A DNA stretch of 38,355 nt from Chloroflexaceae bacterium (GCA_012031815.1 JAAUTE010000002.1:1-38355); one strand, 5' to 3'. Positions 125 through 36,704 are shown, counted from the stretch's first letter. The notes: generated by a model from the sequence alone, not told the origin. Program-made: numbers and translations.

Positions 125-740
125 ATGACCTCCTATGCAACTGCTGCTGCAAGGGCTGAGATGAGCGAATTGCGGCGCTTAAAAACCCTTTTACCCCCAG
201 AATTGCAAAGCTGGTCATGGTAGAAGGCTCTAGTGATGTTAACCCGCCCTTGATTCGCTGCGAAGAGATCGGTCGCGATGAAGTAGAAATCCAGCTCGAT
301 CTCGCCAAGTGGGAGAACCTGGCCATTGACCAGCGCAATCTGCTGTTCTGGCACGAAGTGGCCCGGATTCAAAATGACACGATTCCGCGCGAAGGCTGGG
401 AAATGGCGGCCCTGGCCATCGGGTTAGGGGGCGCGGTGGGCGAACTGTGGGTACAAGACGGGTTGCTCTTGCTCCTCGCCCTCTCCCTGTGCGGGATTTC
501 TGGCTATCGCCTTTGGCAAAAAACAGCGGCCAGCGGACTTTGACCGAAGCCATCGAAGCCGACGAAAAGGCGATCGCCCTGGCCAATCGTTTCGGTTACT
601 CCCTGCCCAACGCCTACAAAAGTTTAGGCAGCGCCTTAAAAACCCTGATTGAGCAGACCCCGAACCGAGGCAAGCGCAAGCGCTACGAAGAACGGCTGCA
701 ATCCCTGCGACGTAGCGCTTCTAAACCAAAGACCGCATGA
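125..740 (+). CDS. Conserved cyanobacterial membrane protein (DUF3318-like, name from memory); reading frame broken twice in this assembly
   Basis: Track ORFs 217-543 and 447-740 join into one sensible protein if one A is added to the A6 run 518-523 (...GYRLWQK|NSGQRTLTEAIEADEKAIALANRFGYSLPNAYKSLGSALK...). An unlisted ATG ORF 125-223 (MTSYATAAARAEMSELRRLKTLLPPELQSW) runs into the 217 frame if one G is added at GG 213-214. Two hydrophobic segments are present (MAALAIGLGGAVGELW, LLLLLALSLCGISGY). The N-terminal extension 125-216 is the least certain part. Confidence 0.5.
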
Positions 741-950: not shown

Positions 951-1948
951 GTGATGAATAGCCAAGTTCCCCCGGTCGAATTTCCGGTTGTTGTGGTTGA
1001 AACGGTTCCGGTGATCCAAATGCCTGGTCGCTTGAGCATTCTTGAGGCAATCTCTTTCAAGGAGATCTGCCACAACCTTCTAGAGCAAAAGCCTAACCTC
1101 CAGCGCATTATTCTTGAGTGCAGCGAGACACAATTTATTGACAGTAGCGGGGTTGGGGCCCTGGTTCATAATCATAAAGCGGCTCAAGATCGAGGAGTGG
1201 AACTCGTATTGCGGAATGTGCCTCCCCCTTTTATGGCCGTACTGTCGATGACGGGGTTAAGCGCAGTTCTCCACATTGCCTCGATTTTGGAACGACCGCC
1301 CGCGACCCCACGCCGCCAGCTTTCCCAACCGCCGGAGACACATCCCTCTGTGCGCTCTTGGGTAAAACGATTCTTGGATATCATTGGCAGTTTAGTAGGT
1401 TTGGGAATTACCGCAACGATTTTTATTCCCGTGGCGATCGCCATTCGCCTAGACAGTCCGGGGCCTATTTTTTTGGTCAAATCCGCTGCGGTTGGTTGGG
1501 CAAACGCTTCCGCATCTGGAAATTTCGCTCTATGTGCATTAATGCCGAGCAATTAAAATCTCAGGTATCTAACGAGGCGAAAGGCGCTATTTTCAAAAAC
1601 GATAACGATCCGCGCATTACGCGGATAGGGCGATTTTTACGCCGCACCAGCCTAGACGAGTTTCCCCAATTTTGGAACGTCCTCAAGGGCGACATGAGTT
1701 TGGTGGGAACGCGCCCCCCAACCCCCGATGAAGTGGAGCGCTACGAAGTTCCCGCCTGGCAGCGCTTGGATGTTAAGCCCGGCATGACCGGAGAATGGCA
1801 AGTCAATGGGCGATCGCAAATCCGTGATTTTGAAGATGTGATCAAGCTCGATTTGCGCTATCAGCAAAACTGGTCTTTAAATTACGACCTTGGGTTAATT
1901 TTGAGAACCCTGCTGATCCTATTCCGCAAAAATAGTGGCGCTGTTTAG
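951..1948 (+). CDS. STAS (anti-sigma-antagonist-like) domain fused to a bacterial sugar transferase (polyprenyl-phosphate glycosyl-1-phosphate transferase, PF02397-type) domain; one frameshift at T7 run 1468-1474
   Basis: aa ~15-112 are STAS-like and include the phospho-acceptor motif FIDSSGVGALV (Ser codons 1143-1148). From aa ~139 the sequence reads KRFLDIIGSLVGL...IRLDSPGPIF. After a -1 frame change it continues FGQIRCGWLGKRFRIWKFRSM...DPRITRIGRFLRRTSLDEFPQFWNVLKGDMSLVGTRP...KPGMTGEWQVNGR, which are classic sugar-transferase motifs. Built from track ORFs 951-1556 and 1358-1948. Confidence 0.8.
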
Positions 1949-1973
1949 ACCTCCTCGCAAATGGGTGGCGTTA

Positions 1974-2408
1974 ATGCCAGAGGAAAAGCCAATTCACCAA
2001 ACCTACCTACAGGTGCATACCAAGCTAGAAGACCTGACCGAGGTGCTGCAATGGTTTGAACGTGCCATTAAGCAGTGCGTTCCCGAAGCCGTTTTTTGGC
2101 AATGTCAAGTCGCCCTGGCGGAAGGATTCACCAACACGGTGCGTCATGCCCACCGAAATTTGCCAGCCACTACGCCGATTGAACTTAAGGTAGATTTATT
2201 TGCCCGCAGCCTGGAAATTTGCATCTGGAATTTTGGTCAGCCCTTCGATCTAGAAGCTGCCCTGCGGGCCTTGCCCAGGGAAAAGGAACAGCTTCTCTAC
2301 AAAGAAGATGGCCGCGGTTTGTTTTTTATGGAGCAGCTTACCGATGAGTTGCGCTATGTCCGTACTGATAACGGTCGCAATTGTCTGATTATGCGGAAGC
2401 AGTTTTAG
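1974..2408 (+). CDS. RsbW/SpoIIAB-like anti-sigma-factor-type serine kinase (HATPase_c_2)
   Basis: N-box-like ALAEGFTNTVRHAH and G2-like EDGRGLFFMEQLTDEL motifs, and a small size (~144 aa from ATG 1974). The track ORF starts at GTG 1935, which would overlap the upstream stop at 1946-1948. The gene lies 25 nt downstream of the STAS-transferase gene on the same strand. Confidence 0.75.
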   Translation: MPEEKPIHQTYLQVHTKLEDLTEVLQWFERAIKQCVPEAVFWQCQVALAEGFTNTVRHAHRNLPATTPIELKVDLFARSLEICIWNFGQPFDLEAALRALPREKEQLLYKEDGRGLFFMEQLTDELRYVRTDNGRNCLIMRKQF

Positions 2409-2420
2409 AGAAGCATGACC

Positions 2421-4310
2421 CTAAAATAAAGGTTGGTGCTCCAAGCTGGGCTGGACTTTCAGGCGAATGGCGATCGCACTTAGGTTATCGTGACCATTTT
2501 GCTCGTTGGCAAACTCGATCATCTTGCGCAGTCCCTGTTCCAGATTGGCGCGGGAGCTGAGCAGGGGAACGAGATAGGTATCGCCGTGCTGCTCGAGCAA
2601 TTGGTTGTCTGAAAGTCCATCGGAACACAACAAGAGTAAAGTGTCCTCATTAACCTCAAAAAACTGCACATCTGGTTTGACATAGCCGTTATTGCGGGGC
2701 CCGAGGGCTTGGGTGAGCTGGTAGGCGTCGGGACGGGCGTAGGCAACCTCTCGTTCAACCCCGCGCATAATCTCTCGCTGGCCGACGGCATGATCGAGGG
2801 TCAATAGCTCGCTGCCCCGACGGCGGGTGACCCGATAGATGCGGCTGTCTCCGACATGGGCGATGGCAACGTGAGTATTATGAACCAGGGCGAGGGCAAT
2901 GGTTGTCCCCATGCGTCCAACCCCGGAACGGGACTCCTTGAGGTTCTCGTCGTAGATAGCCTGGTTAGCCTGCAAAATCCCCTCAATAATCGTCTCCTCA
3001 CTGGGTAAATTCTCCTGCCGGCAGGACTGAAAATAGCGCTGTAGGGTCTCAACGGCTAAGGCAGAAGCCACTTCACCGCCGGCATGACCCCCCATGCCAT
3101 CGCAAACAATAAATAAGCCACTGACCTGGATTTTTTGGCGGCGGGAGTTTTCCCAGCGAGAAATTTGGGTTTCAATGCCGTAAAAGTCTTCATTTTGAGC
3201 GCGCTGACTGCCAATATCGGTGATACCAGCCTCGGCTAGGCTCAGCAGTTCCATCGGCAGCACGACCGTCGGCAACTCATCCCCTTCACTGTCTTCACGG
3301 GTGGTGAGGAAATTGGTGCTGTCTTCCTCTGGCGGGTTCACAACCTCCCTAGGGGTTTCCGGCTCAGTTGCTTGGGTGCGGGCCAGTTGCTGGAGTTGCG
3401 ATCGCACTTGAGCGACGTGATCGAACTGGCCGTTGCTGACACGCTGGAGGAAAGGCCGTAGCAACTGGGAATCCGGGGAGTGGCGTTCTCCTAGCAGTTC
3501 CAGCCAGAGCTGGCCCAGTTGTGCGAGGGAGGTGACGCCCCCACTGTCGGGATAAAGTTGCAACAGCACCAGATACTGGTCTTCATCCACCCGCAGATTT
3601 TCCAAGGCCAACAGCGAGCGGCGGCAGTTCACCTTCGTCAGGGCCTCCCAAAGTTGGAGCATTTCATCGAAATAATAGAGAAGTTGCAGCAGGGGCAGGC
3701 TTTCCGCCGCCAGAAATTCTTCCAGGGGCTGCCATTGGGAGCGATCGGCCAGTAACAAAACCGTTCGGGCAGCGTCTTGCCAAGCATCGCCAATTTCAGG
3801 AATGGCGGGCAAGTCCTGGAGGGCCAGGTAGTTCAAGGCGCTCTCCGGCAGGTCAAAAGTCGGGGGAAGGGTCTGGAGGCTATCCGTGGATGGAGTGAGG
3901 GGTTCGGCTTGCGCTTCCAAAAAAAGAGACAGGCGAGTTTTGGCGAGGGGTTGGCGGTCGAGTACCCGTCCTTGCCAAGGGAGTTGTGACGGAGCATCGC
4001 CAGAAACTGGCGGGGTGGCTTCCAGGGATAGGAGCTGATAGCGTCCATCGGCATCAAGGGAGTCTTGGAGTTGCAACTGCCACTGAGCCGTTGCCTCGGA
4101 GGGGGAAGTCCCTGCTAGTTCGGGGGAGTGGAGGATAAGCGCTCGCCAGATCGTCCCGATAAAGGCTCCACAGTTGGGACAATCGGGCACACTGAGGGGA
4201 GCTTGAGTACCGCATTCAGGACAATTTTTGTGGGTTAGAGACGTTCCACAGCGATCGCAATTAGGCGCGGCAGCGGCATTTTCAAACTGGCACTGCGGGC
4301 AAATTAACAT
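2421..4310 (-). CDS. Double zinc-ribbon / degenerate kinase-like domain / PP2C (PPM) Ser-Thr phosphatase
   Basis: aa 1-50 carry four CxxC pairs (CPQC..CDRC, CPEC..CPNC). aa ~88-310 are kinase-like but lack catalytic residues. aa ~355-625 carry PP2C motifs: ITDIGSQRAQNEDF, FIVCDGMGGHAGGEVAS, LLLCSDGLSD, NGHDNLSAIAI. Uninterrupted 629-aa ORF. Confidence 0.85.
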   Translation of the reverse strand: MLICPQCQFENAAAAPNCDRCGTSLTHKNCPECGTQAPLSVPDCPNCGAFIGTIWRALILHSPELAGTSPSEATAQWQLQLQDSLDADGRYQLLSLEATPPVSGDAPSQLPWQGRVLDRQPLAKTRLSLFLEAQAEPLTPSTDSLQTLPPTFDLPESALNYLALQDLPAIPEIGDAWQDAARTVLLLADRSQWQPLEEFLAAESLPLLQLLYYFDEMLQLWEALTKVNCRRSLLALENLRVDEDQYLVLLQLYPDSGGVTSLAQLGQLWLELLGERHSPDSQLLRPFLQRVSNGQFDHVAQVRSQLQQLARTQATEPETPREVVNPPEEDSTNFLTTREDSEGDELPTVVLPMELLSLAEAGITDIGSQRAQNEDFYGIETQISRWENSRRQKIQVSGLFIVCDGMGGHAGGEVASALAVETLQRYFQSCRQENLPSEETIIEGILQANQAIYDENLKESRSGVGRMGTTIALALVHNTHVAIAHVGDSRIYRVTRRRGSELLTLDHAVGQREIMRGVEREVAYARPDAYQLTQALGPRNNGYVKPDVQFFEVNEDTLLLLCSDGLSDNQLLEQHGDTYLVPLLSSRANLEQGLRKMIEFANEQNGHDNLSAIAIRLKVQPSLEHQPLF

Positions 4311-4473
4311 GGGTGCAACCCCCTCGATTTCCCTGGAGTGGTCAATGGCGATTCCCCATTACTATAGCTGCTGTATGGCTGACTAGGGAGTAGTTATCGA
4401 ACATTTGCCGGCAAAATATAGCTAAGGGTTATTGTCAAAAAAACAACTGGAAGCGAAAAAGGTCAAGACAACC

Positions 4474-5169
4474 ATGAAGGACAAAGCGGTTTTACTGACG
4501 GGAGGGACGGGCGGTTTGGGGTTGGGCGTCGTGTCAGCGGTTCTGGCCCGAGGGGCAAAGGTAACCCTTCCTTATCGGGGAGAATCGGGGCGCCAGCGGC
4601 TCCAGGAACAATTAACCCCGGAAATGGGCGATCGCCTCCGGTTTGTTCCCTGCGACCTCAGCAATGAAGGGGCAGTGGCTCAGTTGGTAGCGGAGATGGG
4701 CCGGGTAGAGGTGTTAATTCACCTGGTTGGCGGGTTCTCAATGGGAGCAACCCATCAGTTGAGCTACGACGACTGGCAAGCGTCCTTCAATCTCAATCTC
4801 AACACCACCTTTTTGGTGTGCAAGCACTGCCTGGGGGCAATGCTACAACAAGACTATGGGCGCATTGTTACCGTGGGATCTGGCGCATCCCTCAAACCAG
4901 GGGCCAACTTAGCTGCCTACAGTGCCGCCAAAGCTGGGGTCGCGGCCCTCACTCAGGCGATCGCAGCGGAAACCAAAGGAACCAACATCACGGCCAATGT
5001 GGTTTTGCCCAGCGTCATTGACACGCCGACGAATCGGGAGGCAATGGGAAGCGATCGCGCAGAGAACTGGGTCAAGCCAGAGTCTTTAGCGGAAGCCATT
5101 TGTTTTCTGGCATCGGCAGCGGCTGGGGATCTTCGCGGAGCTGTAATTCCAGTTTTTGGCAATACTTAA
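4474..5169 (+). CDS. SDR family NAD(P)-dependent oxidoreductase
   Basis: Rossmann motif LLTGGTGGLGLG and catalytic YSAAK, with typical SDR length. ATG 4474 is preferred to the TTG at 4432 used by the ORF track. Confidence 0.85.
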   Translation: MKDKAVLLTGGTGGLGLGVVSAVLARGAKVTLPYRGESGRQRLQEQLTPEMGDRLRFVPCDLSNEGAVAQLVAEMGRVEVLIHLVGGFSMGATHQLSYDDWQASFNLNLNTTFLVCKHCLGAMLQQDYGRIVTVGSGASLKPGANLAAYSAAKAGVAALTQAIAAETKGTNITANVVLPSVIDTPTNREAMGSDRAENWVKPESLAEAICFLASAAAGDLRGAVIPVFGNT

Positions 5170-5889: not shown

Positions 5890-5955
5890 AGTAACAAGGC
5901 CCTTGGGCCAAATGATATAAGATCGGGGATGCAAGCCCCTCGCCTCGGTGTTTTC

Positions 5956-8273
5956 ATGTCTGCTCCCTTTTCTGCCGAAGAAATTGCTGCCGAACGCCTC
6001 AAACCCCAAGAATACGAAGAAATCGTCCAACGCCTGGGTCGCCATCCCAACCGCGCTGAATTAGGCATGTTTGGGGTCATGTGGTCGGAACATTGCTGCT
6101 ACAAAAACTCCCGTCCTCTCCTTAAACAGTTTCCCACCACCGGCGATCTCATTTTGGTAGGGCCGGGGGAGAATGCGGGTGTCGTGGACGTGGGGGACGG
6201 ACTGAAACTAGCCTTTAAAATTGAATCCCACAATCACCCGTCGGCGATCGAACCGTTTCAAGGGGCGGCCACCGGGGTTGGCGGAATTTTGCGGGATATT
6301 TTCACGATGGGAGCGCGTCCCATTGCTATTTTAAACTCCCTACGCTTCGGAACCCTGGATAACAACCGTGCCCGCCAGATCTTTACCGGGGTAGTTGAAG
6401 GCATTGCTCACTACGGCAATAGCGTGGGCGTTCCCACCGTGGGCGGCGAGGTTTACTTCGATGAAGCCTATGCAGGCAATCCCCTGGTCAATGTCATGGC
6501 CCTGGGACTATTGGAAACCCCAGAAATTGTCACCGCCAAAGCAGAGGGCATCGGCAATCCGGTGCTGTACGTGGGGTCAACCACCGGGCGGGATGGGATG
6601 GGAGGAGCGGCCTTTGCCAGCGTTGAATTAAGCGAGGAATCCATAGATGACCGACCCGCCGTCCAGGTAGGCGACCCTTTTTTGGAAAAATCCCTGATTG
6701 AAGCCTGTTTAGAAGCGTTTAAGACCGGTGCAGTGATTGCCGCTCAGGACATGGGAGCCGCCGGCATTACTTGCTCGACCGCAGAAATGGCAGCGAAAGG
6801 CGGCATCGGCATTGAATTTGATTTAGACCGGGTTCCGGCGCGGGAAACGGCCATGGTTCCCTACGAATACCTGCTCTCCGAATCCCAGGAGCGGATGCTG
6901 CTCATCGCCCACCAAGGCCGGGAGCAAGAGCTGATCGACATTTTTCACCGCTGGGGACTCCATGCGGTGGTTGCCGGGGTGGCGATCGCCGAACCGGTGG
7001 TGCGGATCTGGTTTCAGGGCAAAATTGTCGCAGAAGTACCAGCGACGGCCCTAGCCGAGAATACCCCCATTTATCACCGGGAAATCCTCTCGGAACCGCC
7101 AGAATACGCTACCCAAGCCTGGTCTTGGACGAGTGATGCCCTGCCATCCTGTCAGCTAACGGGGATCGAAATTGAGGGAAAACCCTACACCTGGTCGGAA
7201 ATTTTACTAAAGTTGCTGAGCTTGCCAACCCTGGCGTCTAAAGCCTGGATTTATCGCCAGTACGACCATCAGGTACAAAATAACACCGTCTTGCTGCCGG
7301 GGGGGGGCGATGCCGCCGTGATTCGCCTGCGCCCCATTCCGGAAGTGGATGCGGCGGTTGTCCCCTACCGCAAGGGCATTGCCGCTACCACCGACTGTAA
7401 CTCGCGCTATGTCTATCTCGATCCCCACGAGGGAGCCAAAGCTGCCGTGGCCGAAGCCGCCCGCAATTTAAGCTGTGTGGGAGCCGAACCCCTCGCCGTA
7501 ACCGATAACCTCAACTTTGGCAGCCCCGAAAACCCGGTTATCTACTGGCAGCTCGCCTTGGCGTGCCAGGGCATTGCCGCTGCCTGCCGGGAACTCAATA
7601 CCCCGGTTACGGGCGGCAACGTCTCTCTCTACAACGAAACCCGCGACGCCCAAGGCAATCCCCAAGCCATCTACCCCACGCCCACCATCGGCATGGTCGG
7701 TTTGCTCGAAGATATCACCAAAGCCTGCTCCCAAAGTTGGAAACAGCCGGGAGACGCCATTTATTGGCTGGGCTATGTTCCCAACGCTCAAACTCTCGGC
7801 GGTTCCGAATATTTAGCCTCTCTCCACGGCATCGTCGCTGGCCGGCGCCCCAGGTGGATTTTGAGCGGGAGCGCCGCACCCAAGCCGCCTGCCGCTACGG
7901 AATTCAACAGGACTGGATTAATGCCGCCCACGACCTCTCAGAAGGGGGCTTGGCGATCGCTTTAGCAGAATGCTGTCTAAGCGGTAATTTGGGCGCTGAG
8001 GTACGACTGCCAGAAAGTTCACAGCGCTGGGACGAACAGCTCTTTGGCGAAGCGACGAGCCAAATTCTGACGGCCGTTTCTCCAGAACAGCAAATTACTT
8101 GGGAAGCCTACCTGACACAACAACTGGGTTGCGCCTGGCAAAAGCTGGGCCAGGTTAGCGATCGCTCCCACTTGCGGGTAATTACGGCTGACGATCGCCT
8201 CTTAATAAACGTTAATATCGGTGATATGGGCGATCGGTGGCACCAAGCAATTTCGCGATCGCTTAACCTCTGA
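5956..8273 (+). CDS. purL: Phosphoribosylformylglycinamidine synthase subunit PurL; frameshift at C4 run 7848-7851
   Basis: [66 protein letters not shown]. The C-terminal ~140 aa continue in track ORF 7563-8273 (...[41 protein letters not shown]...) once one C is added. ATG 5956 is preferred to 5929. Confidence 0.9.
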
Positions 8274-8488: not shown

Positions 8489-9969
8489 ATGAGCCTTTAT
8501 CCTGTTGCTTCGCCTGTCCCGTCCCCTGCCTTCGTCGAGACGATTCCCGACAAACCCGAAGAAGCCTGTGGCGTGTTTGGCCTCTACGCTCCTGGCGAGG
8601 ATGTCGCCAAATTGACGTATTTTGGCTTATTTGCTTTACAGCACCGAGGCCAGGAGTCGGCAGGCATTGCCAGCTTCGAGAGGGAGCAAGTCCACGTTTA
8701 CAAGGACATGGGGCTGGTTTCCCAGGTATTTAACGAAAAAATCCTGCGACAGCTCCCAGGCAACTTGGCGGTCGGCCATACTCGTTATTCCACCACAGGT
8801 TCCAGCGTCGTTGTCAACGCTCAGCCCGCCGTCTTGCAAACCCGTCTTGGGCCACTAGCCCTGGCCCACAACGGCAATTTGGTCAATGCAGCCCAACTGC
8901 GCTCAATTTTACAAAATCATAACTGTCGCTTTGAAACTACCACCGATTCGGAAATGATCGCGGTGCGATCGCGCGGGAGGTCAACAGCGGCAAGGATTGG
9001 TTAGAAGCCGCCATTAGTGCCTTTCAACTGTGCAGCGGGGCCTATAGTTTAGCGATCGGGACGCCCCAGGGAGTAATGGGCGCTCGCGACCCCAACGGCA
9101 TTCGACCCCTAGTGCTTGGTACATTCCTCAGCAACGGCATCACCCGCTACGTTCTGGCTTCGGAAACCTGTGCCCTGGACATTATTGGAGCGGAATACCT
9201 GCGAGAGGTGGAACCAGGGGAATTGGTTTGGATCACGGAAGCGGGTCTGGCCTCTTTCCACTGGGCTAAAAAACCGGAGCGCAAGCTGTGTATCTTCGAA
9301 ATGATTTATTTTGCCCGTCCCGACAGCCTCATGCACGAAGAGACGCTCTATCGCTACCGCGTTCGCCTCGGCGAGCAACTGGCTAAAGAATCCCCCGTTG
9401 ACGCTGATTTTGTCATGGGCGTGCCTGATTCTGGAATTCCAGCGGCGATCGGGTATTCCCGCCATTCCGGCATTCCCTACGAAGAAGGCTTGATCAAAAA
9501 TCGCTACGTCGGTCGTACCTTCATTCAACCGACCCAGACCATGCGAGAATCGGGAATTCGCATGAAACTCAATCCCCTCAAGGATGTTTTGGCGGGCAAG
9601 CGGGCGATTATCGTGGATGATTCCATCGTGCGCGGTACCACCAGCCGCAAAATTGTCCGCGAGATGCGAGAAGCGGGGGCGAAGGAAGTTCACATGCGTA
9701 TTTCTTCACCGCCGGTTACCCATCCTTGTTTTTATGGCATCGACACTGACTCTCAGGATCAGCTGATTGCGGCGACCAAATCCGTAACTGAGATTGCGGC
9801 GCAACTGGGCGTCGATTCTCTGGCTTATTTGAGTTGGGAAGGCATGTTGGCGGCCACTGGAGAAGATCCCAATAGTTTCTGTTCCGCTTGCTTCACGGGG
9901 GATTATCCCGTTCCCGTTCCCGACCCCCTCAAACGGGCTAAACTGCGGCTGGAGGAGCTGGCGGTTTAG
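8489..9969 (+). CDS. purF: Amidophosphoribosyltransferase PurF; frameshift near 8964
   Basis: Propeptide then the N-terminal nucleophile EEACGVFGLY, followed by LQHRGQESAGI and GHTRYSTTG. After TTTDSEMIAV the protein continues in the frame of track ORF 9076-9969, which is open from ~8941: AIAREVNSGKDWLEAAISAFQLCSGAYSLAIGTPQGVMGARDPNGIRPL. PRPP loop IIVDDSIVRGTT. Confidence 0.9.
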
Positions 9970-14821: not shown

Positions 14822-16280
14822 TTAAGTGAGGTGAGTTGCGATCGCAGCCAGCAAGGTTTTGCTCCAGTACTCGGCTACGGCCCCATCCGCCGCTTCCACC
14901 ATCACCCGAATCACCGGTTCCGTTCCAGACGCACGCACCAATACCCGACCCGTTTGACCCATTGCCTCTTGGGCTGCGGCGATCGCTGCCTGGAGAGGTT
15001 CGCACTCCTGCCAGTGACGGCGGCGGCTATCCTCGACACGGGCGTTGCAAAGAATTTGGGGATAAGGCTGAAAACTGCCATCAATCAACTGAGCCAGGGT
15101 CTGACCCGACTCCCGAACCAAGGCTGCCACCTGGAGCGCGCTCAGCAGGCCATCCCCCGAAATACCGTAGTGATGACAAATGATGTGTCCAGACTGTTCG
15201 CCGCCGAGCATGGCTCCCGTTTGCTGCATTTGAGCTTGGACATGGCGATCGCCCACTGGGGTTCGCAACAGTTGGCCGCCCCGCTGCTGCCAGGCCCGTT
15301 CAAAACCCAGATTGGCCATAACTGTCCCCACAATCAGATTTTCTGGCAGGCGCTGCTGCTGCTGGAGGGCTTGGCCCCACAAATAAAGGAGGTAGTCGCC
15401 ATTGACCTCGCGGCCGCGATTGTCCGCCGCTAAAACCCGATCCGCATCCCCATCAAAGGCAAAGCCCAGATCGGCTTGATGTTCCGCGACAGCGCCTGCA
15501 ATCGTCCAGATGGGTTGAGCCACAGCTAACATTGATGCGATCGCCATCGGGTTGGTCGTGTAAGGCGATGACCTCAGCCCCCAAACGGCGAAACAGTCCC
15601 CCTCCCAAGGGTGCTGCTGCGCCCCAAGCCAGATCTAGGACAATCCGCAAACCCGCCAGGGTTGCCCCCTCTCCCAAGGATGCTTGCAAGGCTTGACCGT
15701 AGTCCGCCACCAATTGGGGCCGGTAGTACTGCTTGCCCCAAGCCCCCGCAGTTCCCAGGGACGGAACGCCATCGCCATTCCCCTCCCACCGCTGCCGTAG
15801 TTGCGCGGCGATCGCCGTGGTGCTGCTGGTCGCTAGCTTAGTTCCCGCTCCGCCAAAAAACTTGATGCCATTGTCTTCGGGGGGATTGTGGCTCGCCGAA
15901 ATCATAATGCCGCCCATTGCCTCTGTGATACGAGTGAGGTAGGCAACGCAAGGAGTAGGACACAGGCCCAACTGCCAAACCTCAATTCCCGCCGCCGTCA
16001 ACCCTGCCGCGATCGCCGCTGCCAGCATATCGCTGGAGTTGCGGGAATCTTGGCCAATAATCACCGGGCCTGGCACAGAAGCCTGGCTTTGCAGGACTTG
16101 CCCCCCACAAAAACCAACTTGCAGCGCAAAGGGAGCCGTCAGTAATTCTCCCACCTTACCCCGAATGCCATCGGTACCAAACAGGGGATCGGGAAGGGCA
16201 GCCAAAGTGGGGCCGGGCAAGCTCTCCGGGGCAAGGGTTATCTGAGCGCTGCCGTTAGGGCCAGATAAAGAAGCCACCAT
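14822..16280 (-). CDS. glmM: Phosphoglucosamine mutase; frameshift around 15500-15510
   Basis: [11 protein letters not shown], phosphoserine loop [33 protein letters not shown]. Built from track ORFs 15453-16583 and 14822-15547. ATG 16280 is preceded by GAGGAG with a 9-nt spacer. The 101 extra N-terminal residues in the track ORF overlap the upstream gene and look non-protein-like. Confidence 0.9.
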
Positions 16281-16452
16281 AGCGTAATTCTCCTCACACA
16301 ACTTGCATTCACAAGACAAATCGTACTCGATTCTTGGCAGACCCCATTGCCTGGACGAGTGCCGATCCAAGGGCGGCTTCTCTAGTTTTTTCGCGCTCAG
16401 GACTAGCAGTTTCCTGATTTTGCGCCAACTCCACCCAGGCCGCTTTCCCCTC

Positions 16453-16749
16453 CTAGACTCCTGCCTCCTTGAGGAGTTCCACCATCTCTGACCAGGTGAA
16501 ATGGCGTTGCAAGTAACGAGGACGATCGGGCTGGTAGGGACTGGCCAGGCGATCGATGCTAACAATGGTCGCCTTCTCGTCAATGAGAGGAACGTCCGGA
16601 TCGCTGGGGGTCGATCGCCACAAAGAACTGGAAAATCCCCTAAAAATCATCACCAGATCGATTTCACCCTCGGTTTCCGCTTCGACCAGCAACACTTCTT
16701 GCGATCGCTGGCGGCTGTAGTCCTCTAGTCGTTTGATCCTTGTGGGCAT
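16453..16749 (-). CDS. Conserved hypothetical protein (98 aa)
   Basis: From ATG 16749: [42 protein letters not shown]...[20 protein letters not shown]. The composition is protein-like and the gene sits directly upstream of glmM on the same strand. I believe homologues are common in cyanobacteria but cannot name the family with confidence. Confidence 0.55.
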
Positions 16750-18918: not shown

Positions 18919-19865
18919 CTATTTTACCGCGCTGACATTGGGGTGAGGCGGGGGAATCTCGTACCAATGGGAGAGATCGCGCTGAATGAGCGCCCCTAAA
19001 CGCACAATTTCCGGCTTAAATTCCTGTAGGAGCTGATAGCGTAGGGTTGGCTCCAGGGGAGGACGGGGGGCAAATTCAGTATTGAGCTGTTTGAGTCGGT
19101 TTTGACCCTTGCCAACAGCGATCGCCGTAGGGACTGGGGTAGAGGCAATAAATATTTTCCGAGGGCTAGCACTTTAGCGGGGGGGTACTTGAGTAAAGTC
19201 TGGAGAAAAGAGCTGCGGACTTTTTTATTAGAATTGACGGGATTAAACTCCGTTGTAAAATCTGGATTAACGCCCAAAAAAGTCAGGGTCTCTCGAAAGA
19301 TGGGGCTGATATTACGGCTAAAGTCTTCAAATAAAATAAAGTGAATTTGCTCGCGGCTAAAAATATCAAGATAGCGCTGGATTTGCACCGAGAAGGTCGC
19401 CTTATCCCGATAAAATAAAACCTTGGGATCGCGGCAGCGATCGGGGATGTGACGCCCTTGTTTCCGTTCTGTCTCCAGGTCTAAAGCCGTTTTAAAATCT
19501 GGAACCGTTTCGCTCGATCCGTTAAACAACAGTTGACTGTGGTAAGAATACATCATGGAAACAGGATCGCGCAGCATAATAATAATTTTCGCTGCTGGCT
19601 CAAACTCATAAATGCCTTGGGCTGCCACTTCTGAATACAGGTAAGTCGGCGTTCCCTCCCCGCAGAGCTTGGCTTCCCCCTCGGCAAAAAAAGCCAAATA
19701 ATCCGCCAGTGAATTAGCGGGTTTAGATGTCTTCAAATCAGTATCGAAATAGTGCAATTCTTTGAGGGGCGGAAGATAAATCTCAGGGTGGCAGCTCAAA
19801 TAACGACACAGAGCAGTGGTTCCACATTTAGCAGCGCCGACAATGAAAAAACTGGGCTTGGGCAT
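18919..19865 (-). CDS. Sulfotransferase family protein; frameshift at 19100-19103 (A4 on the coding strand)
   Basis: PAPS 5'-phosphosulfate loop [12 protein letters not shown] after MPKPS (ATG 19865). The last ~60 aa are in another frame: [58 protein letters not shown], ending at TAG 18919-18921. The track ORF tail ([17 protein letters not shown]...) is the out-of-frame reading. Confidence 0.8.
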
Positions 19866-19947
19866 GAGGGACTCCTGGGCTTGGCAGCAATCCATAGCCT
19901 AGAATACCCCCAAATCAGCCAGGATTCACTCTCCACAGCCTAGGCGG

Positions 19948-22767
19948 TCAGTTCGGTTCTGGTTTGGGGTTTGTCGGTTGCGATCGCGACCATCGGGCGA
20001 AACTAGCGGCTAGTTCAGCTAAGGCAGCGACCAATTGGGGGGAAACCTCCAAACTCCCAGAGCGCAGGTGTAAATCCCGCTGAGGAAAGGGAACGTGCAG
20101 CTCGTGCTGGCGCAACAGGGCTTCAATGGCAAAATACAGGTCACTTTTGATCTGAAACTGCTTGCGGGGTTCGCCGATCCACACCAACAGGTCAAAATTC
20201 AAAGCATTTTCCCCAAATCCCAGGAAAAATACCCTTGGCGAGGGCGCGCTTAGCACATCCTTTTGTTCCCTCGCCGCTGCCAGCAAAACCGATCGTACCG
20301 TATTGGGATTAGAACCATAGGCAACCCCCACCGGAATTCGTAGGCGGGACACGGAGGTATTGTGGCTCCAATTAATTACTTCTGCTTCGAGAAAGCGAGA
20401 ATTTGGCAAGATCACTGAAATATGATCAAGAGTGCGGATTTCGGTGCTGCGGACGCTAATACGCTCCACCGTTCCCATCAAACCGCCCACTTCCACAAAA
20501 TCTCCCACCTGAATCGGGCGCTCAAACATCAACACCAAGCCACTGACAAACTCCTTGGCAATGCCCTGGATGCCCAAACCAATCCCCACCCCCAGCACCC
20601 CGGCAAACACCGTCAGGGAACTGATGTCCAGGCCCCACAATTGCAGGAGTACGATCGCCCCAATCAGAATAAACGTGTAGTTAGCAATAATAGCAATGGT
20701 TTCCTGCGCCGCCCGACTCAGGCCCGTCAAGCGCAGAATGCGGGACTGCAATCCTTTTTTCAGGCTCCGGGCTGCAACAATCAACGCCGCCAATAAGGCC
20801 AGCAACAGGATCAAATCCAGCACCGAATAGGCACTGTCTCCCAGGGAAAACAGGTCAGAAAAGAGACTATTAACGACTATATCAACAAAAAAGCGGCTCC
20901 ATTGACGGGTTTGCGGGAATAACTCCAAAATCGACACCAGCACGCTCAGCCACACCCCGGCTCGTCCCAAAGTTAACAGCACCCGCGCTCCCGTTTCTGC
21001 CTGGATCGGCTGTTGAGCTGCGGTTTGTAATCCCACCGTTACCGGCTCCTCGCCAGACACCGGCTCCGATTCCCAACGGGGTTTTAACCAGCGATGCCAC
21101 AACCAGCCCAACCCCCAACTGGCTGCGATCGCCAATCCTGCGTACACCAGAGATAGCACCAGCGCCTGGATCAAGTAATCCGGCTGACGTTCCCGCTCCG
21201 CCTGGGCGAGGGCAGTTTGCAAGGTTTGAACCCAAATTTCCGCCTGCTCCTGCACCGTTCGGCCTTGGGGCGCATCTTCTGCGGTTACCGAAAGGAGATG
21301 GGCATTGCCATTGAGGCGAATCACTGGAATTTCCTGGGAATAATCTACCCTCACCGCTGGCGATAGCGGCAACTCCCGTAGAGTCTCTCGGAGAAGACGG
21401 TTCGCTTCCTCTGCCCGCTGTTTGGCACTGTACTCCCCCGACTGACTGACGTTAAAGATTCGGCGGCCATCGACAACAATAGGCGCACTGTCCCGGAATT
21501 GAGCCAATGCGACCAGAGGACTCGCCAGCAGCAAACAAAGCATTCCCCAGCATAGCCAGCGCCACACCAACCCGCAAAACCGCCCCTTCATAGACTCAGA
21601 AAACTGCTCTAAATTTTGGGCAGAAACGGGTTTCGGCGACTCTGGCTCAGGGATTAACTCTCCCAAGCGATTTGGGACAACCGCATTGCCGCCCGCAGCC
21701 AGTGCCTGCTGTTCCGCCAACAGCTTCGGTTCCAGGTACAAATTTTCCAGGAGTACTGACACCCCCGCAACCCAGGGTGGGACAATCAACGCGCCAATAA
21801 TGCCCAACACCTGGGCCCCGCCTAGAACGGCCAACAATTGATACAGCGGCGCGACCCGGACGGAAGACCCCACCAGCAAGGGATCGAGGACGTAGGTTTC
21901 CACGTTTTGAATAATTACAAACAGCAGCAGCACCCAGGCAAACGTCCACCCGCCCTGAGCCACCGCCACAATCAGCGCCGGGACGGCTCCCAATACCGGG
22001 CCAAAAAAGGGAATCAGGTTCGTAAACCCGGCAATGACGCCCAAACCCAACGCCAACTCCGAAATTCCCAATATCCGCAACCCTAAGGTCACAGCGATCG
22101 CCAAAATCCCGGACACCAAGAGACGACCTTGAATATACCCACCCATGCGGCGGCTCACCGGCAATACCTGGGCTGCCAGCCGCCGATCCCAAGGGTAGGG
22201 AAACAAACTCACGAGTCCCGGCAACAAACGCTGGGAGCCAGACAGCATGTATCCAGACAGCAATACCGCCAGAAATAGATTAAAAACGCCTCCCACGAGT
22301 CCCCGCGTCACCCCTAGGGACTGCAACAAAAGCTGCTGGCTAGAAGCCAGGGCCCAAGCCACCAGAGCCTGTAAATCGAAATACTGATTGAGCAGCGCCA
22401 GGGATTCCGGTTCGTTGATCCCAAAGCGAATTACCAGGGCTTGGCTCAGTTGCGCTAACACTTCCAGATAACCAGGCAGCGCCCGCACCAAGCGCTCAAT
22501 TTGCTCTACCACGGTCGGGCCAATCAGCACACCCGCGCCAGTTAGCAGGGCAATAATGCTTAAATAGACGAGAATAACGGCTAACCAGCGAGGAATTTTG
22601 AGTTTCTCCGCTTTTTCCACAACTGGAGCCAGTGTAGCCGCCAAGATTACTGCGATCATGCAAGTCAACAGTAGACTTCGCAACTGCCACAGTAGAATTA
22701 CCCCAAAGACCACTGCTAGGAGCAGCAGAAGACTCGTTAAAGGAAGAAAGATGCGCCGCTCAGTCAT
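19948..22767 (-). CDS. Single 939-aa ORF combining an AI-2E (PerM/UPF0118) transporter module (aa 1-~350) and an MscS-family mechanosensitive channel module (aa ~393-939)
   Basis: N-terminal part: multiple TM segments and GLGVIAGFTNLIPFFGPVLGAVPALIVA, typical of AI-2E. From internal ATG 21591: a signal-like MKGRFCGLVWRWLCWGMLCLLLASPLVALAQ, a periplasmic-type domain, TM segments, then the MscS core FERPIQVGDFVEVGGLMGTVERISVRSTEIRTLDHISVILPNS. No stop codon separates the two in this assembly. Confidence 0.75.
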   Translation of the reverse strand: MTERRIFLPLTSLLLLLAVVFGVILLWQLRSLLLTCMIAVILAATLAPVVEKAEKLKIPRWLAVILVYLSIIALLTGAGVLIGPTVVEQIERLVRALPGYLEVLAQLSQALVIRFGINEPESLALLNQYFDLQALVAWALASSQQLLLQSLGVTRGLVGGVFNLFLAVLLSGYMLSGSQRLLPGLVSLFPYPWDRRLAAQVLPVSRRMGGYIQGRLLVSGILAIAVTLGLRILGISELALGLGVIAGFTNLIPFFGPVLGAVPALIVAVAQGGWTFAWVLLLFVIIQNVETYVLDPLLVGSSVRVAPLYQLLAVLGGAQVLGIIGALIVPPWVAGVSVLLENLYLEPKLLAEQQALAAGGNAVVPNRLGELIPEPESPKPVSAQNLEQFSESMKGRFCGLVWRWLCWGMLCLLLASPLVALAQFRDSAPIVVDGRRIFNVSQSGEYSAKQRAEEANRLLRETLRELPLSPAVRVDYSQEIPVIRLNGNAHLLSVTAEDAPQGRTVQEQAEIWVQTLQTALAQAERERQPDYLIQALVLSLVYAGLAIAASWGLGWLWHRWLKPRWESEPVSGEEPVTVGLQTAAQQPIQAETGARVLLTLGRAGVWLSVLVSILELFPQTRQWSRFFVDIVVNSLFSDLFSLGDSAYSVLDLILLLALLAALIVAARSLKKGLQSRILRLTGLSRAAQETIAIIANYTFILIGAIVLLQLWGLDISSLTVFAGVLGVGIGLGIQGIAKEFVSGLVLMFERPIQVGDFVEVGGLMGTVERISVRSTEIRTLDHISVILPNSRFLEAEVINWSHNTSVSRLRIPVGVAYGSNPNTVRSVLLAAAREQKDVLSAPSPRVFFLGFGENALNFDLLVWIGEPRKQFQIKSDLYFAIEALLRQHELHVPFPQRDLHLRSGSLEVSPQLVAALAELAASFARWSRSQPTNPKPEPN

Positions 22768-28185: not shown

Positions 28186-29120
28186 TTAGTTAGCCTGTTT
28201 GTGGTCTAATTGCAGAAAAATAGTTTCTAGACTGTCAATTTCACTGCGAAACTCCGTTAGGGGAATGCTAGCCGCCACCAAATCCCGCAACAATTGGGCG
28301 CTGTCGGCGGGAGACCCGGTAAAATTCAAGCGCAGCCGACCGGGTTCCGGTAAATATTCCCATTCCTGGACGAAGGGGCAGTTTTCTAAGGCTTGCTCCA
28401 GGGTTTGGCGATCGCCAAGGTAGAAAGAATGAGCCACTGGCGGGAGCGCTGATAGAGAGATTCCAGGGGGGCACTTTCCACGAGACAGCCCAGCTCCATG
28501 ATACCGATGGCACTGCAAAGCTCGGCCAGATCGCTGAGGACGTGGGAAGAAATGAGAACCGTCATGCCGGCTGCTTGCAACACCTTGATAATATCCCGGA
28601 ATTGCTGGCGAGCAATGGGGTCTAGTCCAGAAACAGGCTCGTCCAAAAGGAGAAGCCAGGGTTCGTGAATGATGGTGCGGGCGAGGCTGAGCCGTTGTTT
28701 CATGCCCCGCGACAGGGTAGAGATGAAACTATCCCGTTTGTGGGCAAGATCGACTAATTCGAGCACTTCATTGAGGCGGCGGCGGCGGGACTTTCCCTGC
28801 AAGCGGTACAGGCGGGCAAAGTAATCTAGGTAATCCCAAACGGTAAGGTCATCGTAGACGGGAAAATCGTCGGGAAGATAGCCTAATTGTCTCTTTAACC
28901 AGGGGTCGCAGCGATCCAGGCGCAAACGCTGGCCAAAAAGCTGAATTTCTCCGGCGGTTGGCTCCTCGGCGGCGGCTAACAGGCGAATCAGGGTGGTCTT
29001 GCCTGCGCCATTGGGGCCGATCAAACCGTAGACGGTTCCGCTTTCTACCTGTAAATCAACCTCTCGAACGGCAATGTGGCGCTCGAATTGTTTGGTCAGT
29101 CCCTCGGTGCGATCGCCCAT
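28186..29120 (-). CDS. ABC transporter ATP-binding protein (ABC-2/DrrA-like, with C-terminal accessory domain); frameshift near 28442-28444
   Basis: Walker A GPNGAGKTT, signature LSRGMKQRL, Walker B LLLLDEPVSGLD, H-loop SSHVL. After ...APLESLYQRS the protein continues in track ORF 28186-28518 (VAHSFYLGDRQTLEQALENCPFVQEWEYLPEPGRLRLNF...SLETIFLQL). Confidence 0.85.
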
Positions 29121-31371: not shown

Positions 31372-32216
31372 ATGTTAGAGGCCAAACTAGAGCAACTTCA
31401 AGCCATTTTTAGAGAGATGGAACGGGCGCTAATCGCCTATTCGGGAGGCATTGATAGCACCCTGGTCGCCAAAATTGCCTGGGATATCCTCCAAGACCGC
31501 GCCCTGGCCGTGACTGCCCTCTCCCCGTCCCTCCTACCAGAAGAATTTGAAGAAGCCCAAATTCAGGCAGCCCAAATCGGAATTCGCCATGAATGGGTGG
31601 AAACCCACGAAATGGACAACCCTCACTACACCGCCAATCCCGTTAACCGCTGCTACTTCTGCAAAAGCGAACTCCACGACACCCTCAAACCCCTCGCCGC
31701 GATCGCGGCTATCCCTACGTGGTTGATGGGGTTAACGCCGATGACCTGCGGGATTACCGCCCCGGCATCCAGGCCGCCCAAGAACGGGGGGCGCGATCGC
31801 CGCTGGCCGAAGTTGGCATCACCAAAACAGAAGTAAGAGAGTTATCCAGGCAATTAGGACTACCCTGGTGGAATAAACCGGCCCAACCTTGCTTAAGCTC
31901 TCGTTTTCCCTACGGCGAAGCCATTACCGTTGCCAAACTCCAGCGCGTGGGCCGGGCCGAAATTTATCTGCGAAATCTAGGCTATCACACCCTACGAGTG
32001 CGTTCCCAAGGGGATACCGCCCGCATCGAACTCCCACCCGACCAGATTAAACCCTTTGTCAACCAGAGTGATTTAGGACAATTGGTCGCAGCCTTCCAAG
32101 ACCTGGGCTTTTTGTTTGTGACCCTCGATCTCGAAGGCTTTGCCAGCGGCAAGCTTAACCGCGTCTTAGAGCAGAATCAGCCAGATCGAGTTAGCGCCCT
32201 GAGCGCCGCCAAATAA
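31372..32216 (+). CDS. LarE-family PP-loop ATPase / sulfur transferase (TIGR00268-type); frameshift near 31698-31701
   Basis: PP-loop AYSGGIDST, then NRCYFCKSEL. After ...LKPLAA the protein continues in the frame of track ORF 31719-32216: DRGYPYVVDGVNADDLRDYRPGIQAAQERGARSPL...QPCLSSRFPYG...LRVRSQGDTARIEL. Confidence 0.75.
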
Positions 32217-34361: not shown

Positions 34362-35521
34362 GTGGCCACCCAAACCCCAACCCTAGCCTCCGTTCTTGAC
34401 AAAACCTTAGCCGCCGAAGATTTGACGCCCCAGGAAGGGCTATGGCTCCTCCAGCAAACCCAACCAGCGGCCCTTGCCCAGATTCGCGACGCGAGCGATC
34501 GCCTCCGCCAACAGTTGGTGGGAGAGACGGTCACCTACGTGATCAACCGCAACCTAAATTTTACGAATATCTGCGAGCAGCACTGTAATTTCTGCGCTTT
34601 TCGCCGGGATGATGGACAAGAAGGTGCCTTCTGGCTAGAAGAAGCCCAACTCTTGGAGAAAGTCGCCGATGCCGTTGCTCGCAAGGCCACCGAAATTTGT
34701 ATCCAGGGCGGACTCAACCCCGCCGCCAAACGGGCTGGTTCCTCCCTGTCCTACTATCAGCATCTAATCGAAACCATCAAAACCGCCCATCCCCAACTGC
34801 ACCTCCACGCCTTTTCTCCCCAGGAAATTCAATTTATCTCCAGAGAAGACCATCTAAGCTACGAAACCGTCCTGCGATCGCTCCACGCCGCCGGGGTAGA
34901 TTCGCTGCCGGGAACAGCGGCAGAAGTGCTAGATGATGCTGTCCGGCGAGTAATCTGCCCTGAAAGATTAACACCCAAACCTGGCTCGAAATCGTGGCGG
35001 CGGCTCATCGCCTGGGTATCCCGACCACCAGTACCCTGCTCTGCGGTCATATCGAAACGCCCCAGCAGCAGATTACCCACCTCCTCCAGCTCCGACAACT
35101 CCAGCAGCAGGCCAGCCACAACGACTTTCCCGCTCGCATCAGCGAATTTATCCTGCTGCCCTTTGTGGGCCAGCAAGCCCCCGCCCCCTTACGCAAGCGC
35201 GTCGGCCGCGATCAGCCGGATTTAGCGGCTACCCTGCACTTAACGGCGGTATCTCGCTTATTTTTGGGACGCTGGATCGTCAACCACCAACCAAGCTGGG
35301 TCAAACTGGGTCTAGCCGGAGCCAGCGAAGCCCTGACCTGGGGCTGCAACGACCTCGGCGGCACCCTCATGGAAGAACATATCACCACCATGGCCGGAGC
35401 CCAAGGCGGCACTTGTCTCGAAGTCCCAACCTTGCAGGCGGCGATCGCCAAAATGGGTCGTCCCTATCGAGAGAGATCGACCCTCTATGGTGAGGTCAGA
35501 CCCCTAATTCAAGTCCCGTAG
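34362..35521 (+). CDS. cofH: Radical-SAM FO (7,8-didemethyl-8-hydroxy-5-deazariboflavin) synthase subunit CofH; frameshift at AAA 34963-34965
   Basis: [21 protein letters not shown] (CxxxCxxC), ICIQGGLNP. After ...RRVICPE the protein continues in the frame of track ORF 34994-35521: (K)[32 protein letters not shown]...[19 protein letters not shown]. The futalosine-pathway enzymes MqnC/MqnE are the main alternative. CofH is favoured because cyanobacteria normally use the classical men pathway. Confidence 0.65.
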
Positions 35522-35699: not shown

Positions 35700-36635
35700 A
35701 TGAGAATCTTAGTCACTGGCGGTGCAGGTTTCATTGGCTCCCACCTCATCGATCGCCTAATGGAACAGGGACACGAGGTTCTCTGTTTAGATAACTTTTA
35801 TACCGGGCACAAGCGCAATATCGAAAAGTGGCTAGGACATCCTTACTTTGAATGCATTCGCCACGATATTACGGAACCCATTCGTCTAGAAGTCGATCGC
35901 ATTTATCACCTGGCCTGCCCAGCGTCCCCGGTTCACTACCAGTTTAATCCGGTAAAAACGATTAAAACCAACGTAATCGGGACATTACATATGCTCGGAC
36001 TGGCCAAACGTGTAAAAGCACGGTTTTTACTCGCTTCCACCTCAGAAGTCTACGGCGATCCCCTGGTTCACCCCCAAACCGAAGAATACTGGGGCAATGT
36101 TAATCCGATTGGCATCCGCAGTTGCTACGACGAAGGCAAGCGCGTGGCCGAAACCCTGACCTTTGACTACCATCGCAACAATGGCGTCGATATTCGCGTC
36201 GCCCGGATCTTCAATACCTACGGGCCCCGCATGTTTGAGAATGACGGGCGAGTTGTTAGTAATTTTGTTGTGCAAGCACTACAGGGAATTCCGCTAACGG
36301 TCTATGGCGACGGTTCCCAAACCCGGAGTTTTTGCTATGTTTCTGACTTGGTAGAAGGGTTAATGCGTTTGATGGAAGGGGATTACATCGGGCCGGTGAA
36401 CCTGGGCAATCCGGTTGAGTATACCATTCTAGAACTTGCCCAAACCATTCAAAAAATGGTCAATCCCAACGCCGATATTGCCTTTAAACCCTTACCCCAG
36501 GACGATCCCAAAAAGCGCCAACCCGACATTTCTCGGGCCAAGACCTATTTGGGCTGGGAGCCATTGGTTCCGCTCCAGGAGGGGCTGACTAAAACCATCG
36601 CCGATTTTGAGGAGCGCCTGAACGCCTCACGTTAG
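35700..36635 (+). CDS. UDP-glucuronate decarboxylase (UDP-xylose synthase)
   Basis: [46 protein letters not shown] (YxxxK), [11 protein letters not shown]. This is the highly characteristic UXS pattern. Confidence 0.9.
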
Positions 36636-36704
36636 ATCGGCAAGCTTCGGTTGGGCAAAAGCGGCTGGCAGCTTGATTGTAGTGTTCATCAAGAGGAAAA
36701 AAAC

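Follow-up and report, generated by a model that had tools for sequence, protein, structure and literature searches.

An All4160-type STAS-phosphoglycosyl transferase with an adjacent RsbW-type kinase gene: a probable phosphorylation switch on glycan priming

This report concerns a small gene group near the start of a 38,355-nucleotide stretch of DNA from a Chloroflexaceae bacterium (GCA_012031815.1 JAAUTE010000002.1:1-38355), hereafter the window, whose positions are counted from its first letter. At the centre of the group lies a gene for a STAS domain fused to a membrane-bound phosphoglycosyl transferase (PGT), and an RsbW/SpoIIAB-type Ser kinase gene stands directly behind it on the same strand. 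A DUF3318 gene precedes the pair, and a gene for a PP2C phosphatase meets the kinase gene tail to tail. The features are listed below with the evidence for each, structure predictions being those of AlphaFold2 (AF2) with its predicted local distance difference test score (pLDDT).

217-740 (+): DUF3318 gene, upstream neighbour of the STAS-transferase gene (Pfam DUF3318, 3e-32)
954-1948 (+): STAS-PGT gene, predicted orthologue of All4160 (331 aa after restoring one T)
987-1280 (+): STAS domain, residues 12-109 (PF01740, E = 1.6e-15; TIGR00377, 2e-16)
1143-1145 (+): first Ser of DSSG, predicted phospho-acceptor (invariant in 81/81 family members)
1287-1349 (+): linker between STAS domain and membrane helix, residues 112-132, predicted to be disordered (AF2 pLDDT <50; low conservation in the family alignment)
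1359-1454 (+): long hydrophobic helix, presumed to be the re-entrant membrane helix of a monotopic PGT (AF2 helix 136-167)
1468-1474 (+): T7 run at which the reading frame breaks, one T shorter than in in-frame homologues (homologue comparison)
1655-1660 (+): Asp-Glu catalytic dyad of the PGT domain within SLDEFPQ (D235/E236 invariant; matches SLDELPQ of WbaP)
1974-2408 (+): RsbW/SpoIIAB-type Ser kinase gene (HATPase_c_2), 144 aa (PF13581, E = 8e-24, 84.5 bits)
2229-2231 (+): Asn at the G1-box position of the kinase (IWNFGQPFD), where RsbW and SpoIIAB have Asp (homologue alignment)
2409-2420 (no strand): 12-nt gap between the convergent stop codons (no terminator-like site; fold z-score -0.9)
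2421-4310 (-): zinc-ribbon Group I PP2C of the NF011149 family, 629 aa (PP2C_2, PP2C and double zinc ribbon; NF011149, 781 bits)

As sequenced, the fusion gene is spread over two overlapping open reading frames (ORFs), 951-1556 in frame 0 and 1358-1948 in frame 2, which become a single 331-aa protein when the T7 run is extended by one T; all statements about the joined protein refer to this repaired form. The likely start is ATG 954, and counted from it the predicted acceptor is Ser64 (Ser65 if counted from GTG 951). No stop codon separates the STAS and transferase parts, and the PF02397 domain, as sequenced, lies in the other frame after the T run. The initial annotation of this DNA, made from the sequence alone, had described a STAS domain with an intact DSSG motif (Ser codons 1143-1148) fused to a PF02397 sugar transferase, an RsbW/SpoIIAB-type kinase gene 25 nt downstream, and a convergent 629-aa PP2C gene with only 12 nt between the two stop codons. 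Profile searches and coordinates bear out all three descriptions.

The STAS assignment is well above threshold with both models (57 bits against a cut-off of 22.6 for PF01740 and 59.8 bits against 53.45 for TIGR00377), the domain can be aligned to the SpoIIAA structures 1auz and 1th8, and pLDDT is about 80-90 across most of it. The DSSG motif is encoded by gac agt agc ggg at 1140-1151, and its first Ser occupies the position of SpoIIAA Ser58, as determined by residue count on the SpoIIAA sequence. Conservation of this residue was assessed over the 81 family members. Around it, DSCG replaces DSSG in some members (L006, L027, L065 and L069) and the Synechocystis protein XssP (L288, 4980-5933) has DSAA, with the first Ser kept throughout.

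In the transferase part, the Bac_transf profile PF02397 covers residues 138-324 (E = 9e-65, 218 bits), and TIGR03025 gives 284 bits. The membrane helix and catalytic region can be aligned to residues 6-187 of PglC from Campylobacter and 280-474 of WbaP from Salmonella, and the catalytic domain aligns with both over its full length (E = 5e-28 and 3e-42, respectively). The Asp-Glu dyad and a Pro-containing membrane helix are shared with the PglC structures 8e37 and 8g1n and with those of WbaP, and the helix proline, Pro159, is conserved in at least 90% of sequences. The proteins differ outside this region, PglC being without a regulatory domain, WbaP having additional transmembrane helices and another N-terminal region, and the window protein carrying a predicted N-terminal STAS phospho-switch. 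In PglC-type enzymes the re-entrant helix puts both termini in the cytoplasm. The inter-domain geometry of the AF2 model is unreliable (predicted template modelling score 0.49).

The fusion of STAS and Bac_transf domains is not unusual and is the rule in cyanobacteria. Both PF01740 and PF02397 are present in all 120 of the best matches in the protein collection (64-71% identity), some of which are already annotated as "anti-sigma-factor antagonist and sugar transferase". In total, 596 genome stretches encode relatives of the STAS-transferase; the locus counts given below refer to 80 of these genome loci (L001-L080), and the two closest relatives are L292 and L293. The wide distribution of the fusion across cyanobacteria has also been reported (PMC13555669).

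A member of this family has been characterized by Harada, Matsuoka and Ehira (2026, Mol Microbiol; PMC13555669), namely All4160 of Anabaena sp. PCC 7120, a STAS-Bac_transf protein whose role is in heterocyst envelope polysaccharide. Two RsbW-type kinases, Alr3423 and All2284, phosphorylate the STAS domain of All4160 on Ser74 in vitro; this phosphorylation turns All4160 off, and the SpoIIE-type phosphatase HenR, a receiver-SpoIIE protein, is required for its reactivation (PMC13555669). An S74A variant of All4160 bypasses the loss of HenR, such that polysaccharide formation is restored without the phosphatase, and deletion of alr3423 suppresses the henR defect (PMC13555669). The same study describes a second pair, all2285-all2284, whose genes are adjacent in the Anabaena genome, and notes that XssP of Synechocystis has the same STAS-transferase architecture (PMC13555669). 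The initial annotation had taken control of a priming glycosyltransferase by partner switching to be without experimental characterization; for All4160, that characterization now exists (PMC13555669).

To place the window protein relative to All4160, we compared it with BAB75859.1 (P0278 in our collection), a 351-aa protein encoded on the complement strand of the PCC 7120 chromosome (BA000019.2) within 5,000,384-5,013,439. Its sequence reads F71-M72-D73-S74-S75-G76, placing the published Ser74 at the first Ser of DSSG. We identify this protein as All4160 by strand, position and Ser74 numbering, the record carrying no locus tag; the accession offset, as we presume it to run, is also compatible with that identity. 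The window protein is 62% identical to it over the full length, with Ser64 opposite Ser74, and the two fusion genes share a DUF3318 gene as their upstream neighbour. Best-hit relationships together with this DUF3318 synteny group the window protein with All4160 and not with a second paralogue, and by these marks the window STAS-transferase is an All4160 orthologue, with orthology here meaning similarity plus gene neighbourhood rather than placement in a formal tree.

Paralogues of the fusion were also encountered. XssP, which is encoded on plasmid pSYSM of Synechocystis sp. PCC 6803 and belongs to synechan biosynthesis, shares the STAS-Bac_transf architecture and is 48% identical to the window protein over residues 21-330. 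It differs in lying within a plasmid-borne glycosyltransferase cluster, in having no adjacent kinase and in its DSAA motif, and it is classed as a paralogue rather than the orthologue. A further paralogue, in Nostoc sp. UHCC 0251 (L075, 4840-7017; 58-60% identity), stands in a different context, with a response regulator and a hybrid histidine kinase as neighbours, and is read in a 725-aa frame with an apparent N-terminal glycosyltransferase part; either a triple fusion or read-through across two genes could explain this frame.

The kinase ORF spans 1935-2408, and homologue alignment sets the start at ATG 1974, 25 nt past the transferase stop codon. The protein can be aligned to the RsbW structure 6m36, and the N-box (E..N) and G2 box (GRGL) are kept. 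Kinase and transferase are probably co-transcribed. When the 80 loci were searched with the kinase profile, 20 of them had a homologue immediately behind the fusion in the same orientation, and L292 and L293 have one as well. The initial annotation had named a lack of such synteny in other genomes as a point that would count against its reading. ORF-boundary gaps between the two genes range from -64 to +863 nt, and the ORFs often overlap. All 20 kinase-bearing loci are from outside the Nostocales (Microcystis, Planktothrix, Microcoleus, Snowella, Limnothrix, Spirulina and others), and no kinase was found within 6 kb of the fusion at the Nostocales loci, including all4160. Outside the Nostocales, the kinase is usually operonic with the All4160-type gene. 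At one locus, from Cyanobacteria bacterium SBLK (L010, 6908-8155), the STAS-transferase gene is followed by a tandem pair of RsbW-type kinase genes.

The gene pair is part of a recurrent cyanobacterial neighbourhood that comprises DUF3318, STAS-transferase and kinase, plus, in relatives, a GT4 glycosyltransferase. DUF3318 precedes the fusion in 64 of the 80 loci (77-94% identity) and at all4160 as well (listed at 4145-4783 of L291); a literature search found no paper mentioning the family. In L292 and L293 the gene order is DUF3318, STAS-transferase, kinase, GT4. The GT4 gene follows the fusion or the kinase, within 6 kb, in 35 of the 80 loci and in both of these closest relatives (L292, 7770-9026; L293, 7705-8964); it is usually on the same strand as the fusion and is 55-69% identical among loci. 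The conserved GT4 is absent from the whole window, so that conservation of the gene order stops with the kinase.

The place that GT4 takes in relatives is held in the window by the convergent PP2C gene. Its product has an N-terminal double zinc ribbon, its best matches in the PDB are tPphA, Stp1, PstP and MspP, all Group I, eukaryote-like PPMs, and the SpoIIE profile PF07228 reaches 20.6 bits, below the cut-off of 25. The partner-switching phosphatases RsbU and IcfG are classed in Group II (PMC9430166). We considered IcfG and HltA as identities for the window enzyme and rejected them, since both are Group II (PMC9430166) and the window enzyme is Group I. Synteny was counted in both directions, at the 80 fusion loci and at a separate set of 80 loci of PP2C orthologues (160 in all): the PP2C is present at 0/80 fusion loci and in neither L292 nor L293, and the fusion or the kinase at 0/80 PP2C loci. 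A short-chain dehydrogenase (SDR) gene at 4432-5169 adjoins the PP2C gene divergently, and this pairing is shared in 3/80 PP2C loci, namely L209, L215 and L253, which are from Pleurocapsa-type genomes and Gomphosphaeria. Given that the conserved order ends at the kinase, the adjacency of the PP2C gene looks like a by-product of rearrangement, and the PP2C is probably an incidental neighbour outside the module. The initial annotation had further suggested antisense or collision coupling between the kinase and phosphatase transcripts; no bidirectional terminator or antisense element was found in the 2409-2420 region, nor any notable structure, and we do not retain a suggestion that draws on a lineage-specific juxtaposition.

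We consider the frame break in the transferase gene very probably an assembly error, caused by single-base under-calling of homopolymers, and the transferase gene most probably intact in the organism. Among 71 homologues with the motif matched at the site, all read through in a single frame as GP[I/L][F/L]F; the site sequence is ATTTTCTTT in 47 of them and ATTTTTTTT, a T8 run, in four. The remainder of the transferase is undecayed, keeping every invariant catalytic residue and deviating from the 90% consensus at only a few positions, which argues against the alternative of a real pseudogene, in which a genuine 1-nt deletion would have killed the transferase and left only a 201-aa stub of STAS domain and membrane helix. 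That alternative takes the given sequence, which is frameshifted, at face value, and no second assembly was found in which T7 could be compared with T8 (by exact 28-mer search of genome contigs and exact look-up of the 157-aa kinase). It is nonetheless unlikely, because the 38 kb contain no fewer than six further conserved genes that are split: DUF3318, purL, purF, phosphoglucomutase (PGM), an ABC ATPase and a radical-SAM CofH/MqnC-like gene, with a NAD-synthase-like gene possibly split too (split-gene regions 217-740, 5929-8273, 8489-9969, 14822-16583, 28186-29120 and 34362-35521, and possibly 31372-32216). Exactly one base is missing in 7/8 splits, and homopolymer runs occur within most of the split-gene overlaps. 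Both breaks that could be mapped, that of the transferase and that of DUF3318, sit in such runs, the latter at an A6 run (518-523) where the homologue needs A7. We give almost no credence to a programmed -1 ribosomal frameshift or transcriptional slippage that would yield the full-length enzyme alongside a STAS-only stub. T TTT TTG at 1469-1475 does have the form of a slippery heptamer (X XXY YYZ), with -1 as the shift needed, but the run is not conserved among the homologues just described and no stable structure lies downstream (z = -0.42), for which two reasons this rating is low; similar breaks in many unrelated genes of the window also speak against it. The T7 indel that the initial annotation had reported within the transferase domain is therefore most probably not biology, and other indel or pseudogene calls from this window, with its many single-base deletions, need caution.

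Taking these observations together, we propose that the locus encodes a small, All4160-type monotopic PGT that is switched by phosphorylation of its STAS domain, with the kinase gene adjacent, the PP2C incidental and the frame break an assembly error, and we place the probability of this reading at roughly 0.75. The PGT would form the first lipid-linked sugar of a polysaccharide, with the STAS domain at its cytoplasmic N-terminus, and the disordered linker of about 20 residues would leave that domain accessible to a soluble kinase. By analogy with All4160, the adjacent kinase would phosphorylate Ser64 (codon 1143-1145) and turn the transferase off; a SpoIIE/RsbU-type phosphatase encoded elsewhere, the role of HenR in Anabaena, would turn it back on. 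The output of such a switch would be enzyme activity rather than a sigma factor. The initial annotation's central proposal, that STAS phosphorylation gates the priming transferase with the neighbouring kinase as its agent, thereby gains support by analogy, through orthology to All4160 and the kinase synteny in 20/80 loci.

Several points weigh against this proposal. The biochemistry of phosphorylation and inhibition comes from All4160 only and is carried over to the window protein by analogy. Pfam scans, which covered the larger ORFs of the window, found no SpoIIE-type (receiver-SpoIIE) phosphatase in the 38 kb, and the transferase gene is, as sequenced, broken. The homologue search with the kinase gave 168 proteins, all from outside the Nostocales, and the kinase is not assignable to either Alr3423 or All2284. 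The Asn at its G1 box, standing in for the adenine-contacting Asp, may weaken ATP binding; in other GHKL ATPases, an Asp-to-Asn change impairs it. Tallied among the 120 closest kinase homologues (P0322-P0441), Asn is found in 38 and Asp in 76; a base-call error as the source of the Asn was ruled out by those 38, and a third of the closest homologues share the residue, which marks it as a natural variant. Finally, the glycan made by the window enzyme must, on comparison with Anabaena, be other than heterocyst envelope polysaccharide, since the operonic kinase arrangement is seen only in non-heterocystous lineages, and the recurrent GT4 of the relatives is the only hint to its identity.

Two other accounts of the same genes have to be weighed against this proposal. 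The initial annotation had read kinase, STAS domain and PP2C as one partner-switching triad, in which the convergent 629-aa enzyme would be the cognate STAS phosphatase and kinase, substrate and phosphatase would all be encoded at one locus. A PP2C gene only 12 nt from the kinase stop codon invites this, its product has canonical PPM motifs and is probably active as judged from them, and no SpoIIE-type phosphatase lies elsewhere among the scanned ORFs of the window. We find it unlikely in view of the Group I, eukaryote-like character of the enzyme and its subthreshold SpoIIE score, the receiver-SpoIIE nature of HenR, the phosphatase demonstrated for All4160 (PMC13555669), and the complete lack of co-occurrence in both synteny surveys; the conserved partner of the PP2C, where it has any, is the divergent SDR, and relatives have GT4 at its position. 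A variant of the idea, in which a lineage-specific rearrangement set the PP2C tail to tail with the kinase and the PP2C then took over the role of HenR on the STAS domain, we regard as a long shot; if true, it would have produced a self-contained triad joining a phosphatase of Hanks-type signalling to a partner-switching substrate. The second account is classical partner switching, in which the kinase would act mainly as anti-sigma factor to a sigma factor encoded elsewhere, the membrane-bound STAS domain would sequester or release it, and the transferase itself would be unregulated. Membership of the kinase in the RsbW/SpoIIAB family agrees with this, and the G1-box Asn might favour binding over catalysis. 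It is very improbable all the same: no sigma factor gene turned up in the scanned ORFs of the window, as the initial annotation had also stated, and none was noted in the inspected loci of relatives, where GT4 is the neighbour that recurs. Furthermore, non-phosphorylatable All4160 alone restores polysaccharide in the absence of HenR, which argues that the enzyme itself is what is controlled (PMC13555669).

Relative to the All4160/Alr3423/HenR system, the window locus has, in the repaired form, the same order of STAS domain, linker, membrane helix and Bac_transf domain, an RsbW-type kinase as the predicted regulator, and a gene that likewise lies outside any large polysaccharide cluster. It differs in that the window kinase is operonic, 25 nt downstream, whereas the Alr3423 gene is distant from all4160; in that no HenR-type phosphatase is seen among the scanned ORFs; and in the frameshift of the window gene as sequenced. 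All2285-All2284 of Anabaena PCC 7120, a STAS-transferase with an adjacent RsbW-type kinase, apparently has the window layout, going by its published description (PMC13555669). The canonical partner-switching modules RsbW/RsbV/RsbU, SpoIIAB/SpoIIAA/SpoIIE and the HmpU/V/W of cyanobacteria also combine an RsbW-type kinase with a STAS substrate that has a DSSG acceptor, but the window STAS domain is fused to an enzyme rather than standing alone, no sigma target is present, and the phosphatase next door falls outside the SpoIIE/RsbU type.

The mechanism is already known from the orthologous Anabaena protein, and what the locus adds is comparative points only. The group of All4160 orthologues is far wider than the heterocyst formers, and this breadth, together with the operonic kinase and the recurrent DUF3318 and GT4 genes, hints at a pan-cyanobacterial glycan under the same switch.

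In the remainder of the window, the scanned ORFs include no gene for Wzx, Wzy, Wza or Wzc, and Rfam and tRNA scans were empty. Other genes of the window include a sulfotransferase gene at 18996-19895 (-) and a 939-aa ORF at 19948-22767 (-) in which an AI-2E family transporter domain occupies residues 13-342 and MscS mechanosensitive-channel domains residues 694-891. Towards the far end, at 35700-38093 (+), lies a sugar-nucleotide gene pair encoding an NAD-dependent epimerase/dehydratase and a UDP-glucose dehydrogenase.

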